A DNA stretch of 64,000 nt from Phycisphaerae bacterium. GTDB taxonomy: Bacteria > Planctomycetota > Phycisphaerae > UBA1845 > Fen-1342. Made by a program: the position numbers. The DNA is taken from contig CAXXWX010000023.1 of the NCBI GenBank assembly GCA_963675745.2, positions 1 through 64,000 of the forward strand, read 5' to 3'. Shown piece after piece: positions 9,101-15,100 of this stretch; the stretch's first letter is position 1; each line of letters opens with the position of its first letter.

Positions 9101-12100
9101 CATCTATCCGTTCGACGAGGGGATCGAGACGATTGACGATTTTCACGGTGCCACGTTCGGCCTGCACCAGGTCTGGCAGACGCGACGCGGCATCGGTGAT
9201 CAGCGGCGCATCGTCGATCTGTTGACGGTCAATCTGGAAACCGGTTTCTTCGGCGAAGGCCAGCCTAACGAGAGCACCCTCGGCTATGCCAACATCCTGC
9301 GGCCCGAGGACAGCCGCACGAACAACTACTTCTCGGGTGACGTGATCTATCGCATCAGCGACACGACCAGCCTGCTGTATGACTTCAATATCGACCTCAA
9401 TGACTGGCGCTTCGATCGACACAACGTGTCGCTCGCCGTCGAACGCCTGCCGCGCCTCGCGTACATCATTGGTGCCCGCTACGCCGGTGATATCGACTAC
9501 GCCGTGCTCGGCGGCGGCTTCAACTACAAGCTGAATGAGAAGCACATCGTCACGTATCGCAACTGGTTCGACGTGGACCGTGGGCGCATCGGCGAAATCT
9601 CCGTCGCGTACGTGCGCAAGCTGCCGCGCTGGTACGTCGCCGTAAACTTCGAGTGGGATGAGGTTTTCGACGACGTGACCATCACGGTCTCGGTCTGGCC
9701 CGAGGGCATCCCCGAGTGGACAATCGGCTCGCGCAGGTTCAGCGGCCTTGGCACCACGACCGGCATTCGCCCGTAACGTCGCGCCGGGCGCGTATAATGC
9801 CCTCATGGAGTCCCTTGTCCCCGAGTTTCACTCCGATGTTCCCTTCCCGCTTCTGCGCACCGAGACGGGAGCTTGTCCGTACTTGCCCGACCGCGAGATG
9901 AGCCTGTTGATCGCGCTGGTCAGTGGTATCAGCGGTGATCACTATCGCCACCTGATGGACAAGCGCTTCCGGCGCACCGGCACCGTGTACTACCGGCCGG
10001 ACTGTCCGGCGTGCCAGGCGTGTGTGCCGATTCGCGTGCCGGTTGCGCGCTTCGTGCCGAGCCGGTCGCAAACTCGTGCCGCGCGGCGTAACGCCGATGT
10101 GTGCGTCACGGAGGGCGACCAGTGCGTTGACGATGAGCACTATGACCTGTTCCGTCGCTACCAGCTTGCCCGCCACGCGGGCCAGATGCTGGAGGCGCGC
10201 GCCGAGTTCGAGGAGTTTCTCGGCTCATCGTTGCTGGAGTCATTTGAGCCGGCTTTTCGGCTGGCCGGGCGTCTGATCGCCGTCTCGGTGCTTGATTGCT
10301 GCGCGGACGCGTTGTCATCCGTGTACTGCTATTATGATCCTGACGAACCGCGACGGAGTCTGGGTGTGTACACCGGGCTCCAGGAAATCGAAGCGTGTCG
10401 CCGCCGTGGACTCGATTACTGGTACATCGGCTATCACATCGCCGGCTGCCGCAAGATGGAATACAAGGCGCGCTTCCGGCCGTGTGAATTGCTCCAGCCG
10501 GATGGCACGTGGCGCACAATCGACCAGTAGAGACCACGGGGCGCGACTGATACGTCGCGATGTGAGCCTGGCATGTCAGCACGATCAGAGATCAACCTGG
10601 TTGAGGCCCACACTCCCGCGCGCGTGCCGTTGGTCCGCGCGTTGTTTGAGGAGTATGCCGCCTGGCTCGGCCAGGATCTGTGCTTCCAGGGCTATGCGGC
10701 GGAGCTGGCGAGGCTGCCGGGTGACTACGCCCCGCCGCGCGGGGCCCTGCTGCTCGCCGAAGTTGGCGGTGCAACCGCGGGGTGCGTTGCCTTGCGCAGC
10801 TTTGACGGCGACACGTGCGAGATGAAACGCCTATACGTGCGTGGTGGCTTTCGAGGACGGGGTGTGGGCCGGGCACTCGCCGTGGCAGTCATCGAGCGCG
10901 CGCGGGACATCGGCTATGCCAGGATGTGCCTCGACACACTGGCGACGGAGCAATTGGCGGCCGCGAACCGGCTGTACGAATCGCTCGGTTTTCACGACAT
11001 ACCGTCCTATTACGGCAATCCCATACCCACAGCCCGCTACATGGCGCTGGATCTGACGTGAGCGGACGGTCTCGCTTTATCCACTTGGCAAGCCGCCGGC
11101 CGACAGGTGGGGATGTTCGCCCTTTCCGCATAGAATGTCGCACTTATCTGGTTGGGAAGTGTGTGGCGTGAATGCGCCACAGCGCACGACATGGACAACT
11201 GATGGGAATGCGAAAGTGAACACGAAAACCGCCGAAGCGGGACGCCGGGGTGACGAGGCACGGTCTGACTGTTGGGTCAGGCTAACGCTTACAGATACTG
11301 GGAAACTCGATATCGACCTGCACACCAAGGTCGAAGTGATGTACGGCGACACGACGCGCGCGCTGGTGCGCGATGTACTGGCCGGGCTGGGGGTTACCAG
11401 CGCCAAGGTTGAAATGGAAGACGCCGGCGCGCTGCCGTTCGTGCAGATGGCCCGCCTCGAAGCCGCGGTCCGGCGTTTGGTGGGCGCGGGTGGCTCAGCC
11501 GCTGGCGAAGCGAGTGATGCGGGGCCGACCGGCTCACCGACCTCCGAATACCTCCCCGAGTTTGAACCCCACGCCCAGTATGCGACCGATCGCGAGCGTT
11601 TTCGGCGATCGCGACTGTATCTACCGGGAAACGAACCGAAGTTCATGCTTAACGCCGGGCTGCACCAGCCGGACGCGGTCATCCTGGACCTCGAGGATTC
11701 GGTGGCGCCGCCGGTGAAAGACGAGTCCCGGGTGCTGGTGCGTAACGCGCTGCGCGCTCTCGACTTTAGCGGATGTGAGCGCATGGTGCGCATTAACCAG
11801 GGCCGGCGCGGGCTGGACGACCTTGGATTCATCGTGCCGCACAACGTGCATGTGATCCTGATCCCGAAGGTTGAAGACCCGGCCCAGGTGCAGCAGGTCG
11901 ACCGACGCGTCGGCGAGATTCTGGCGGAGCACGGCATCGACCGCCCCGTCTACCTGATGCCGATCGTCGAGAGCGCCCGCGGCGCGATCAAGGCGTTTGA
12001 CATCGCCTGCGCTTCGCCCAACAACTGCGCGCTGACGATCGGGCTCGAGGACTACACGGCGGATATCTGCACACAGCGCACGGATGAGGGACGCGAGAGC

Positions 12101-15100
12101 TTCTGGGCACGCAGCCAGGTCGTGAATGCCGCCCGCGCCGCGGGACTTCAGCCCATCGACACGGTGTTTTCCGACGTCAACGACATGGCCGGCTTGAGAG
12201 CGAGCGTATTGGAAGCCAAGGGGCTGGGCTTTGACGGCAAGGGCTGCATCCACCCGCGTCAGATTCAGGTTATTCACGAGGCATTCGCGCCGTCGGAGCA
12301 GGAGCTGGACAAGGCCCGCAGGATCGTGGCGGCTTTCGACGATGCCCAGGCCAGGGGTCTCGGCGCCGTATCGCTGGGTAGCAAGATGATCGACCCGCCA
12401 GTGGTCAAACGCGCTCAGCGCGTCGTGCGGCAAGCCGAAGCGATGGGGATGTTGCCGTGAGTTGCGCGCGGGAGCCGTGAGTTGCGCGGGGGCCATGAGT
12501 CGCGCCGGGGCCGCGAGTCGCGCCTGGGCCGTGAATTGCGCGCGGGGGCCGTAAGTTGCGCGCGGGTCACGCCGGTGATCGTGGATTAGTGTTGCGGGTG
12601 TGGCAGTGGCAGCGTGGCAGTGTTGTAGTGTGGCACTGTGGCATTGAGTTCTGGGGTTTTGGATTTCGTGTATCGGTGTTGGGCTTTCGGCGTTCGGCGG
12701 CGCTGGGTTGTGGCATTGGGCGGCGCTGGGCTGTGGCGGTGGGCGGCGCTGGGCTGTGGCGGTGGGCGGCGCTGGGTTTTGGGGTCCGGCTGTCGGACTT
12801 CGGCTTTCAGGTCTCAAATTTGGGATTTCAGATCTCAGATTTCGGATCTCAGGTTTGAGATTTTGGATCTCAGTTTCTTGCCGCCCGGTGTGCGGCTGGT
12901 CCGCCGCGGCCGTTGCCTCTTCTCCTGAAATCTGAAAACTGAAATCTGAAAACTCAGTCCCACAGCCGGAGGATCCCCTCTTGAACCAGCGCGCCTTGGC
13001 AGACGACGCGCGACGGGCATCCGCCGGTGACGCGGACGCGCTTCAGCGGCTGATCGTGCATTGCCACGACACGCTTCGCCGCGCGGTTGCCGGCGGCGCC
13101 GCCGCCGCACTGGCCCACCGCATCGACCCCGACGACGTGCGCCAGCAAGTCTACGTGGCGGCGTTTGAGGCGATGGTGTCGCCAAGCGGCGGCCGGTCGG
13201 CACCGGCAGATGGCGGCTAACGCCGAGGCCGGCGGCCCCTTCCGCGCTTGCCTGTCATCCGATGAGCCGGCATCATTGTTGCCGGCGGTGCCCGGCGCGC
13301 GGATCGTTCGCCATCGGGCCCGACAGCCGGAGAAGACCATGTTCAAAAAAAAGCACCCGCCGGTGGGCTCCAAACCCGGCACGCTCATGGTCCACGCGCA
13401 CGCTGAGCCGCCGGCTATCAGGGTGATGAAGTTCAAACCGGATCACCTTGAGGAACACGAGGTGGTTTCGGTTGGCGAACTGAAGGGTCTGCTGGAAGCC
13501 AACGCGGTCTGCTGGATCGATGTGCAGGGGCTCGGCGATGAGCAGGTTCTGCGAAAGCTGGCCGACCTGTTCTCCATTCATCCGTTGGCGTTGGAAGATG
13601 TCGTTAACGTGCCCCAGCGCCCCAAGGTCGAGTGTTTCGAGGAACACACGCTATGCATTACGCGGATGGCGCTGCTGCGCGACGAAACGATCGAACGCGA
13701 GCAGGTCAGCATTTTCATCGGCCCGCACTATGTGCTCACGTGCCAGGAACGCAGCGGCGACGTTTTTGATCCGGTCCGCAACCGAATCCGGCAGGGTGGT
13801 CCGGTCATCCGCAGCTCCGGCCCGAGTTACCTCGCATACGCGCTGCTGGACGCGGTCATCGACGGGTACTACCCGATCATGGAGATGTTCGGCGAGAAGC
13901 TCGAGTATTTTGAGGACGAGATTGCAGCCAACCCCCAACCGGCGATCCTGCACAGGATTCAACAGGTGAAACGCGACCTGCTGGCGCTGCGCCGAGCGAT
14001 CTGGCCACAGCGCGAGGCGATCAACACACTGATTCGTGATGAGAATCCGCTCATCACCGACGCCGTGCGCGTGTACCTGCGTGACTGCTATGACCACTGC
14101 GTGCAGATAATGGACGCGGTGGAGACGTACCGCGAATTGGCTGGCGGCCTGATGGACGTATATCTCTCGAGTGTCGGCAACCGCCAGAACGAAGTCATGA
14201 AGGTTCTGACGATCATGGCCAGCATCTTCATCCCACTTACGTTTCTGGCCGGTATCTACGGGATGAACTTCGAGACCATGCCGGAGCTGCACTATCCCTG
14301 GGCCTATCCACTGCTTCTGGCCGTCATGGCGGTGCTGGCAGCCGGGATGATCTGGTATTTCCGTCACAAGGGTTGGCTTGGCGGCCGACCACCCGCGCGT
14401 CGGGGGTAGGAGAGCCAACGCCGCGCTCACGCCGAATCCGATTGGACCTCGGCCTCAGGCTGGCGATCCAGATCGGTCCGGCGGAGAATGGTGCCGGCTG
14501 GATATTGGCAGTGTACGTGCATTTAATGACGGGTCTTCGCCAGCGATAGCCGCTGCGTGGAGGAAATGATCACCATGCGACTTTCAATGAGAGCGGGCGG
14601 CAGAATGCGGTTTGGCCCTCTGCACGCGCTGGTCCTCCTGTTGGTCAGCGTGGCCGCCGCCCAGCAGCCACAGGAGACGACCACCGGCGAGGCCCAGACG
14701 CAGCCCACGGCGGCAACGCAGCCGACCGGCCCGCAAGCGTCGCTTTCGGTGAGCGAACTCCAGTTGCATCTGAAGCAGGTGATGGATGCGGCGGATCTCA
14801 CCGAAGACATCCAGTCAAAAGCGGCCGGCCTGTACACGCAGGCCATCCAACAGCTCGAAACCGCGGAGCAGTGGGCCGCCAAAGCGCTGGAGTACGAAAC
14901 GGAGCGACAGAAAGCCCCTGAGACACTCAGCGCTATCCAGGCGGAACTGGTAACGCCGCTGGGCGAACCGACGCCGGACGTGCCCGCAGATGCCACGCGT
15001 GCCGATCTGGAGCAACGTCTCCGCCAGGTGCAGAGCGACCTGGAAGCCGAGAAAAAAGGCCTCGCCGACTGGGAACGCGAACGCGACCGGCGCACGACAA

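Follow-up and report, generated by a model that had tools for sequence, protein, structure and literature searches.

We propose that a citrate-lyase-like gene pair of a Phycisphaerae bacterium, a CitD-CitE fusion and its CitF partner, is probably an ATP-independent (S)-homocitrate lyase which works on free CoA esters and would end an undescribed route of lysine catabolism, a reading based on gene content, motifs and co-occurrence. The DNA comes from assembly GCA_963675745.2 (Planctomycetota; UBA1845; Fen-1342), and the window, the whole stretch of 64,000 nucleotides that was analysed, covers positions 1-64,000 of contig CAXXWX010000023.1. The fusion gene (11216..12460, forward strand, as are all features of the window given here) has a GTG start and encodes 414 residues; its longest open reading frame begins at 11135, and a protein collection gives the same 414-residue product from 11216. 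Pfam profiles recognise an acyl carrier domain (PF06857, residues 15-87, 59.5 bits) followed by an HpcH/CitE domain (PF03328, residues 131-347), while the NCBIfam scores for citD (45.8 bits, cut-off 63.5) and citE (269.6 bits, cut-off 443.4) both lie below cut-off. In an AlphaFold2 model (pLDDT 93.8, pTM 0.92), the CitD-like domain without carrier serine (residues 1-90; 11216..11485), which is delimited by PF06857, the alignment to E. coli CitD and a complex model, is joined by a flexible linker (residues 92-107; 11489..11536; pLDDT below 50 at residues 92-100 and 102-107) to a CitE-type acyl-CoA C-C lyase barrel with its lid (residues 128-411; 11597..12448), placed by the TIGR01588 span and fold matches.

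The lyase part retains Arg192, Glu252, Asp279 and Asp393 in invariant or near-invariant columns, with catalytic roles that we partly presume, and the Mg-binding and catalytic residues of a CitE-type lyase are present. The roles were assigned by alignment to malyl-CoA lyase (PMC3832036). The closest folds are human CLYBL (Z 35.6, rmsd 2.1, 288 aligned residues) and malyl-CoA lyase (Z 34.6). These two enzymes and the citramalyl-CoA lyase of the itaconate pathway have the barrel, the catalytic residues, the best-matching folds and, if our proposal is right, the use of free acyl-CoA in common with the fusion, but they lack a CitD domain and a CitF partner and act on C4-C5 substrates. We saw no sign of pseudogene decay; the fusion deviates at just one near-invariant column of a 67-row alignment. 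The GNAT acetyltransferase gene upstream (10573..11061; PF00583) has relatives at just 3 of 80 fusion loci; it was dismissed as a stand-in for CitC on this ground and is probably incidental.

Alignment to E. coli CitD places Arg16 of the fusion at Ser14, which we take to be the site carrying phosphoribosyl-dephospho-CoA, with Ser17 at Gly15 and Asp18 at Asp16; the three codons lie at 11261..11269. An earlier note on this DNA had described the fusion with its CitF partner and the replacement of the carrier serine by a conserved arginine, and both descriptions hold. R-S-D occurs at 77 of the 78 readable loci among 80 related ones (two end before the motif), and the sole exception, L047, has S-S-D next to a gap in its assembly. 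Ser17 and Asp18 are present in 67/67 rows of the fusion alignment and Arg16 in 66/67, and R-S-D was found in all 137 fusion-related proteins from protein collections (133 by pattern, four by eye). Seventeen short R-S-D matches, mostly on short contigs, may represent cut fusions rather than stand-alone carriers. The CitD-like domain matches MdcC (5vit) weakly by profile (E 0.077); a single-sequence model of the domain (pLDDT 63) gave no structural match, and barrels took up the match list of the fold search with the whole protein.

The absence of the activating enzymes, likewise claimed before, was also recovered. At E<=1e-3, tblastn of the source genome gave no match to E. coli CitC, CitX or CitG, nor to CitC, CitX and CitX-CitG from two relatives, and the PF01874 profile had no hit there (0/1). 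CitG is missing from 48 of 50 fusion genomes, which cover 50 of the 80 loci; the two that have it, as the earlier note had said of all three enzymes, carry them separately in a canonical citrate lyase cluster, and a true CitC was found in the same two among five relatives checked. The concern that incomplete bins explain these absences is eased by the single-chromosome assemblies G027 and G032, which have neither CitG nor a true CitC. With the carrier serine and its activating enzymes gone, free CoA esters are most likely the substrates of the fusion and CitF. To this extent the interpretation of the earlier note stands; it was incomplete in that the gene neighbours point to homocitrate and lysine catabolism.

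The partner gene lies in the source genome at C11:11143-12846 (reverse strand) and its product is a CitF-type transferase by PF04223 (424 bits). Docking of the CitD-like domain on CitF is predicted with a score of 0.83, against 0.00 for the best control, and a partner pLDDT of 88; the mark used for such scores is reached by 116 of 157 solved pairs and 2 of 215 mismatched pairs. Contacts agree by at least 95% between runs, and the modelled interface includes fusion residues 16-17 and CitF residues 472-475, with no partner residue singled out for Arg16. The score may, however, stem from resemblance to the ancestral pair of CitD and CitF. CitF Asp472 is found in 45/45 variants and is Gly in three canonical CitFs; in all, 30 positions are shared by at least 90% of the variants and differ from all three canonical CitFs, and a long branch sets the variants apart from these three (SH-aLRT 100, in a quick tree). 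Conserved and predicted to dock, the CitD-like domain does not look like junk; in the model it binds CitF, which suggests that it is probably a scaffold bridging CitE and CitF.

We regard it as very unlikely that the domain is still a carrier with Ser17 modified by an unknown enzyme, perhaps together with the HD-domain protein encoded at 30 of the 80 loci. The invariance of Ser17 and its place within the predicted CitF interface would fit such a role. But the worry is weak: among 134 ordinary CitD-like proteins matched by pattern, which have the carrier serine at the preceding residue, 78 show Ser here as well, and the known transferases are those not found above. HD proteins are mostly hydrolases, and in 20 of the 30 linked ones the motif His is replaced by Ala; no solved relative was found for them, and their Atlas clusters are described only as HD phosphohydrolase.

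The gene neighbourhood argues for a substrate other than citrate. Within 8 kb of the 80 loci we counted citF at 53, the aconitase family at 37, the IDH family at 36 and prpD at 28, close to the 5-kb counts reported earlier. Nine of 28 aconitase-family neighbours exceed the homoaconitase cut-off TIGR00139 (539-766 bits versus 529.9), and two further linked proteins bring this to 11 in all; the remainder are LeuC/HacA-type. All 55 linked dehydrogenases carry Y-x-S-P-I-V, shared with the fission-yeast homoisocitrate dehydrogenase 3ty3, and have Ile at the position of E. coli Asn115. Their best families are AksF and their best PDB match is a homoisocitrate dehydrogenase, with all scores below cut-off and level with some isocitrate dehydrogenases. 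A Lys/Arg-Tyr motif, described for NADP (PMC10574006), is likewise present in 55/55. The dehydrogenase closely follows the fusion: in an even sample of 80 genomes of the order, its long orthologue occurs in 12/12 fusion genomes and 1/68 others, the lone fusion-less one (G111) having a variant CitF near a contig end, and across many phyla 50/50 fusion genomes have the enzyme (46 at >=65% identity, two of these partial, and four as its shorter paralogue). Homoaconitase-type and homoisocitrate-dehydrogenase-type neighbours together point to homocitrate, and to lysine catabolism, rather than to citrate.

It is unlikely that the pair instead acts as a free-CoA citrate lyase or a reversible citrate synthase, interconverting oxaloacetate plus acetyl-CoA, citrate and 2-oxoglutarate in glutamate synthesis or breakdown. 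Some homoisocitrate dehydrogenases accept isocitrate too, CitF reaches or nearly reaches the citF cut-off (504 and 485 versus 501), and 12 of 50 fusion genomes lack Si-citrate synthase, so that a citrate role is possible in those; several have no match to the dehydrogenase family besides the linked one. However, citrate synthase is present in the other 38 and in the source genome (gltA, besides prpB, prpC and prpD), for which reason a missing citrate synthase was discarded as a general explanation, and the two genomes with CitG retain a full canonical citrate lyase in addition. The dehydrogenase without Asn115, the homoaconitase-type aconitase and the 30 distinctive CitF positions also speak against citrate. 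Compared with citrate lyase CitDEF (EC 4.1.3.6), the variant has kept homologous CitD, CitE and CitF, the transferase-plus-lyase logic and a CitD-like domain predicted on CitF, but differs in the fusion, the Arg, the lack of CitC, CitX and CitG, the long CitF branch and the neighbours. A role in the methylcitrate cycle was rejected, as the source genome has its own complete cluster, whose PrpD shares just 32% identity with the one in the operons.

A few operons connect the homocitrate lyase proposal to lysine. G040 has a co-oriented run of citDE, citF, dehydrogenase, HD, two hydratases, P6C dehydrogenase, an LKR-type gene and saccharopine dehydrogenase, and G017 the order aminotransferase, P6C dehydrogenase, dehydrogenase and, further on, citDE-citF. 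P6C dehydrogenase adjoins only 3/80 loci and also occurs in 42 of 68 fusion-less genomes of the order. Above cut-off, P6C dehydrogenase is found in 31/51 genomes and lysine 6-aminotransferase in 16/51, the source genome having both; five fusion genomes (four of them WOR-3) have neither, and the saccharopine pair was found in only three of these five. Of the 54 genomes in the order that have P6C dehydrogenase, ten lack glutaryl-CoA dehydrogenase; the linked dehydrogenase family occurs in 8/10 of these and in 8/44 of the others, kin not being independent. Fusion-less G074 and G114 carry an isocitrate-lyase-family lyase at the matching place, in one case behind P6C dehydrogenase; no close orthologue of this lyase was found in G103, G126, G102 or G106, and the match in G058 is at just 45%, so the parallel operon rests on two genomes.

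The same seven-carbon chemistry could run forward, CitE joining acetyl-CoA and 2-oxoglutarate in place of homocitrate synthase and the module making 2-oxoadipate for lysine or longer 2-oxoacids, which we think improbable. In its favour, every step lies close to equilibrium, the saccharopine enzymes work in both directions, and the nearest characterised relatives, fungal enzymes of the Lys4 and Lys12 type, serve biosynthesis. Yet LysX passes its cut-off in 2/51 genomes and a Lys2-type reductase (TIGR03443) in 0/51, with up to nine candidates scored per genome, while LysA is present in 27/51; moreover, P6C dehydrogenase, where linked, works oxidatively in catabolism, and the fusion-less operons contain a lyase of an acetate-releasing family. 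No homocitrate synthase (LeuA family) was noticed among the recurring neighbours at the 80 loci, the genomes as a whole not having been searched for it. Quite unlikely, too, is that another 2-oxoacid is shortened, such as 2-oxobutyrate through citramalate or the 2-oxoisocaproate of leucine through isopropylmalate, or that a module of broad range serves several amino acids. Many operons have LeuC/LeuD-type hydratases, the dehydrogenase gene adjoins a 2-oxoacid:ferredoxin oxidoreductase pair in three Bacteroidales, and P6C dehydrogenase is missing from some genomes; against this stand the fungal-type motif in 55/55 dehydrogenases and the fact that lysine-type genes are the only catabolic entry genes observed in the operons.

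In the lysine route that we favour, lysine 6-aminotransferase or the saccharopine pair, whose genes are present, would convert lysine to piperideine-6-carboxylate, which would go on to 2-aminoadipate and 2-oxoadipate, the last transamination being assumed. The NADP-motif homoisocitrate-dehydrogenase-like enzyme would then carboxylate 2-oxoadipate reductively with CO2, homoaconitase would form cis-homoaconitate, and from this (S)-homocitrate would be made by PrpD or by a further hydratase of the Fe-S type, as enzyme family and stereochemistry suggest. CitE has Si-face stereochemistry, and dehydration toward the acyl-CoA-derived arm is the geometry it requires. PrpD has this direction (PMC5690661). 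Homoaconitases of this type catalyse the homoaconitate-homoisocitrate step alone (PMC3556520), which explains a second hydratase. CitF would transfer CoA from acetyl-CoA or another acyl-CoA to homocitrate, and CitE would cleave homocitryl-CoA to 2-oxoglutarate and acetyl-CoA, the serine-less CitD domain being retained, on the model, as their bridge.

Several observations count against this route. NADP motifs are found also in oxidatively working IDHs, operons with two Fe-S hydratases and no PrpD have no ready path to (S)-homocitrate, and the HD protein has no evident place in the route. Glutaryl-CoA dehydrogenase, a standard exit for 2-oxoadipate, is present in the source genome and in 7/12 fusion genomes of the order sample. 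Furthermore, no dehydrogenase, homoaconitase, operon-type PrpD or HD gene was detectable in the source genome. This genome is 91% complete and without any IDH-family gene, which makes a bin gap plausible; but three close relatives have the dehydrogenase next to the queE site, where this genome has a different gene. Contigs of the source sample, matched against the operon of a relative, covered it in patches and came from a mixture of organisms, which is compatible with a bin gap or gene loss.

The fungal upper alpha-aminoadipate pathway comprises homocitrate synthase, aconitase, the homoaconitase Lys4 and the homoisocitrate dehydrogenase Lys12. It shares with the module a homoaconitase above TIGR00139 (in relatives), the Y-x-S-P-I-V dehydrogenase and the use of two enzymes for the isomerisation (PMC3556520). 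In the module, by contrast, a lyase and CoA transferase replace the irreversible synthase, the dehydrogenase has an NADP motif, the proposed direction is backward, downstream biosynthetic genes are lacking, and PrpD replaces aconitase, which would give (S)- rather than (R)-homocitrate. The known exits from 2-oxoadipate, by glutaryl-CoA or by an iron- and oxygen-dependent route to 2-hydroxyglutarate, have the entry enzymes and the intermediate in common with the proposed one, which would instead fix CO2, use reducing power, need no oxygen and yield 2-oxoglutarate and an acetyl unit; the iron-dependent route was reportedly described in a 2020 preprint. Mainly openly accessible papers, without their supplements, yielded no account of a serine-less CitDE/CitF system or a homocitrate-lyase route.

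Overall, we give about an even chance to a wider picture in which many, mostly uncultured phyla degrade lysine via (S)-homocitrate with CO2 fixation and without oxygen, running chain elongation backwards with a citrate-lyase descendant whose carrier has turned scaffold (Ser to Arg, with Gly to Asp in CitF), with a parallel isocitrate-lyase-family version acting on (R)-homocitrate, and with a bacterial dehydrogenase and homoaconitase that are possibly related to Lys12 and Lys4 of fungi. If true, this would be a third exit from 2-oxoadipate, independent of oxygen and glutaryl-CoA. It would also add a new step of heterotrophic CO2 fixation, in protein degraders of the Planctomycetota, Gemmatimonadota, Bacteroidota, WOR-3, KSB1 and others. 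Annotations as citrate lyase, which hint at a reverse TCA cycle, and as leucine or lysine biosynthesis would then need correcting, and the CitD-like domain would be an example of an acyl carrier protein retained as a purely structural bridge.

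The CitD-CitE fusion (window 11216-12460, plus strand, 414 aa) joins a CitD-type domain (residues 15-87) to a CitE-type barrel (residues 128-411). Position 14 of E. coli CitD is a serine, which we take to be the one bearing the prosthetic group, and the alignment places Arg16 on Ser14, Ser17 on Gly15 and Asp18 on Asp16. The claim of the earlier note that an arginine replaces the carrier serine is confirmed: R-S-D was read in 77 of the 80 related loci, with two cut before the motif and one reading S-S-D, and in every one of the 137 proteins that two homologue searches returned. 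The sole S-S-D fusion (L047:2530-3723, genome G030) lies beside an assembly gap, and neither CitG nor CitC had a match in that genome. Since the fusion and CitF of this genome depart from few near-invariant columns (one and six; medians 2 and 3), neither protein has the look of decay. Two further CitD-like proteins are serine-less, a 394-aa CitD-CitE fusion reading K-G-D (P0252) and an 88-aa protein reading R-S-D (P0260), and their sequences suggest that carrier loss may have occurred more than once. Around the fusion, we also observed a GNAT acetyltransferase gene upstream (window 10573-11061; relatives in 3/80 loci) and, on its 3′ side (window 12460-12950), translations that look repetitive, with short repeated units.

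The reported absence of the activating enzymes also held. CitC, CitX and CitG had no match in this genome. Of the fusion genomes, 50 (representing 50 of the 80 loci) were checked for CitG, and two have it, both with a separate canonical cluster. Complete canonical citrate lyase clusters occur in addition to the variant in genomes G040 (L086, L153) and G031 (L154), and CitX is fused to CitG in G040. Incomplete bins had been named as a possible cause of the absence; however, CitG and a true CitC are also missing from two single-chromosome assemblies (G027 and G032), so this is more than a binning effect. CitE-family lyases require a thioester and many act on free CoA esters (PMC3832036; PMC6232273), which makes a free-CoA cycle the simplest reading for the fusion; with a CitE barrel, a route that does without CoA is unlikely. 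The near-invariant Lys142-Phe143, closer to free-CoA lyases than to three canonical CitEs, may be a minor hint in the same direction.

It had also been suggested that Ser17, one residue downstream, could be modified instead. Among 150 relatives of one canonical CitD, 134 fit the motif pattern and 114 of these have serine at the carrier position; in 78 of the 114 the following position is serine as well. Ser17 therefore looks like an inherited non-carrier position and is probably not a substitute carrier, although its invariance in 67/67 alignment rows leaves a small door open for such a role.

High AlphaFold2 scores for the fusion (pLDDT 93.8, pTM 0.92) across a disordered linker suggest that the CitD domain packs on the CitE barrel. 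Moreover, a complex model of fusion residues 1-95 with CitF scored 0.83 versus 0.00 for the best control, against a mark reached by 116/157 solved pairs and 2/215 mismatched pairs; runs shared at least 95% of contacts, and partner pLDDT was 88. This pass may reflect likeness to the ancestral CitD-CitF complex, although no solved CitD structure was found by sequence. The predicted interface comprises fusion residues 16-17 and CitF residues 443-445 and 472-475. CitF Asp472 is present in 45/45 variant sequences and is glycine in three canonical CitFs, and it is tempting to infer that an Arg16-Asp472 pair stands in for the contact of the phosphoserine. However, the pair is absent from the contacts listed by the complex model, and the CitF of the S-S-D genome also keeps the variant aspartate. 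The CitF of this genome (C11:11143-12846; L084:8144-9847) carries about 48 inserted residues close to position 60 that are absent from canonical CitFs.

Within 8 kb of the fusion lie citF (53/80 loci), aconitase-family (37), IDH-family (36), HD-domain (30) and prpD (28) genes. The neighbours described in the earlier note thus recur, but its "aconitase" is of homoaconitase type and its "IDH" homoisocitrate-dehydrogenase-like; overall, its observation stood and its interpretation is only partly supported. By sequence, the aconitase-family neighbour does not belong to the TCA cycle: the fungal-type homoaconitase cut-off was passed by eleven of the copies tested, and operons without PrpD have two LeuC/HacA-type enzymes. 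The dehydrogenase gave its best profile scores with homoisocitrate dehydrogenase families, but under their cut-offs, and a PDB search scored homoisocitrate dehydrogenase level with some IDHs. All 55 dehydrogenases carry Y-x-S-P-I-V, common to the fission-yeast homoisocitrate dehydrogenase, and isoleucine stands at the E. coli IDH Asn115 position. Lys/Arg-Tyr occupies the Lys344-Tyr345 positions in 55/55, where the Thermus enzyme has Asp-Ile; this pair is a determinant of NADP use in E. coli IDH (PMC10574006). The linkage to the fusion is tight. The dehydrogenase occurs in 50/50 fusion genomes (this form in 46, a shorter paralogue in four), and when 80 genomes of the order were sampled evenly, the long form turned up in 12/12 with the fusion versus 1/68 others, the single exception having the variant CitF near a contig end. 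The conserved HD-domain gene (about 185 aa; L058:3112-3687, L019:4367-4912 and 28 more loci) comes in two types, with the motif His in 10 and Ala in 20; our guess is a homocitrate lactonase or isomerase. At three Bacteroidales loci (L095, L096, L107) the dehydrogenase gene lies 3′ of a 2-oxoacid:ferredoxin oxidoreductase pair (IorAB-like), which possibly supplies the CoA donor.

Our best explanation, of moderate confidence, is that the fusion and CitF form a predicted free-CoA (S)-homocitrate lyase ending a lysine breakdown route. In G040, citDE, citF, the dehydrogenase, HD, two hydratase, piperideine-6-carboxylate (P6C) dehydrogenase, LKR-type and saccharopine dehydrogenase genes run on one strand, and the G017 operon starts with an aminotransferase and P6C dehydrogenase. 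P6C dehydrogenase was over the cut-off in 31/51 genomes and lysine 6-aminotransferase in 16/51, this genome included in both cases (C4:47635-49089 and C23:172552-173838). The biosynthetic continuation is all but missing (LysX 2/51, Lys2-type 0/51); LysA, by contrast, occurs in 27/51. Among 54 order genomes having P6C dehydrogenase, in which kin are not independent, the dehydrogenase family occurs in 8/10 without glutaryl-CoA dehydrogenase versus 8/44 with it, and the fusion alone in 5/10 versus 7/44. G027, a closed genome, encodes P6C dehydrogenase together with the fusion, CitF and the dehydrogenase, and no glutaryl-CoA dehydrogenase orthologue was found there.

CitE-type lyases act on the Si face; with 2-oxoglutarate, this chemistry would make (S)-homocitrate, not the biosynthetic (R) form, the substrate. 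In PrpD-carrying operons, homoisocitrate and (S)-homocitrate would be joined by PrpD and homoaconitase, given the specificity of each: fungal homoaconitases perform only the homoaconitate-homoisocitrate step (PMC3556520), and PrpD, unlike aconitases, carries out a syn elimination on the acyl-CoA-derived arm (PMC5690661). Two operons of fusion-less genomes, L159:8829-14675 (G114, with P6C dehydrogenase first) and L161:5884-9852 (G074), contain the shorter dehydrogenase, an isocitrate-lyase/PEP-mutase-family enzyme and a single LeuCD. Isocitrate-lyase family chemistry is acetate-releasing, and these operons fit a candidate (R)-homocitrate route with such a lyase.

Several observations count against the lysine-homocitrate reading. 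No dehydrogenase, homoaconitase, operon PrpD or HD gene was found in this genome, which does have glutaryl-CoA dehydrogenase. As the genome is 91% complete and no IDH or isopropylmalate dehydrogenase of either family (PF00180, PF03971) was found in the whole of it, the missing dehydrogenase suggests a bin gap; citrate synthase and AcnA are present. However, the queE site used in three relatives is occupied here by another gene, and comparing the sample's contigs with a relative's operon did not separate a bin gap from gene loss. P6C dehydrogenase adjoins only 3/80 loci, occurs in 42/68 fusion-less order genomes and is missing from five genomes (four WOR-3), three of which have the saccharopine pair. 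Citrate synthase is missing from 12/50 genomes, which leaves room for a citrate role there.

We found no published description of the fusion, a homocitrate lyase or lysine degradation via homocitrate in searches of a paper library with limited coverage of subscription journals. The enzyme would work like citrate lyase, but the carrier serine and activating enzymes that belong to it are absent, which sets it apart as a new variant; the pathway that it probably serves would be new as well. Bacterial genes at L019:1013-4324 and L066:3160-6359 exceed the threshold of the model for fungal homoaconitase and carry the motif known from fungal homoisocitrate dehydrogenase, a likeness that may be relevant to how Lys4 and Lys12 arose in fungi.
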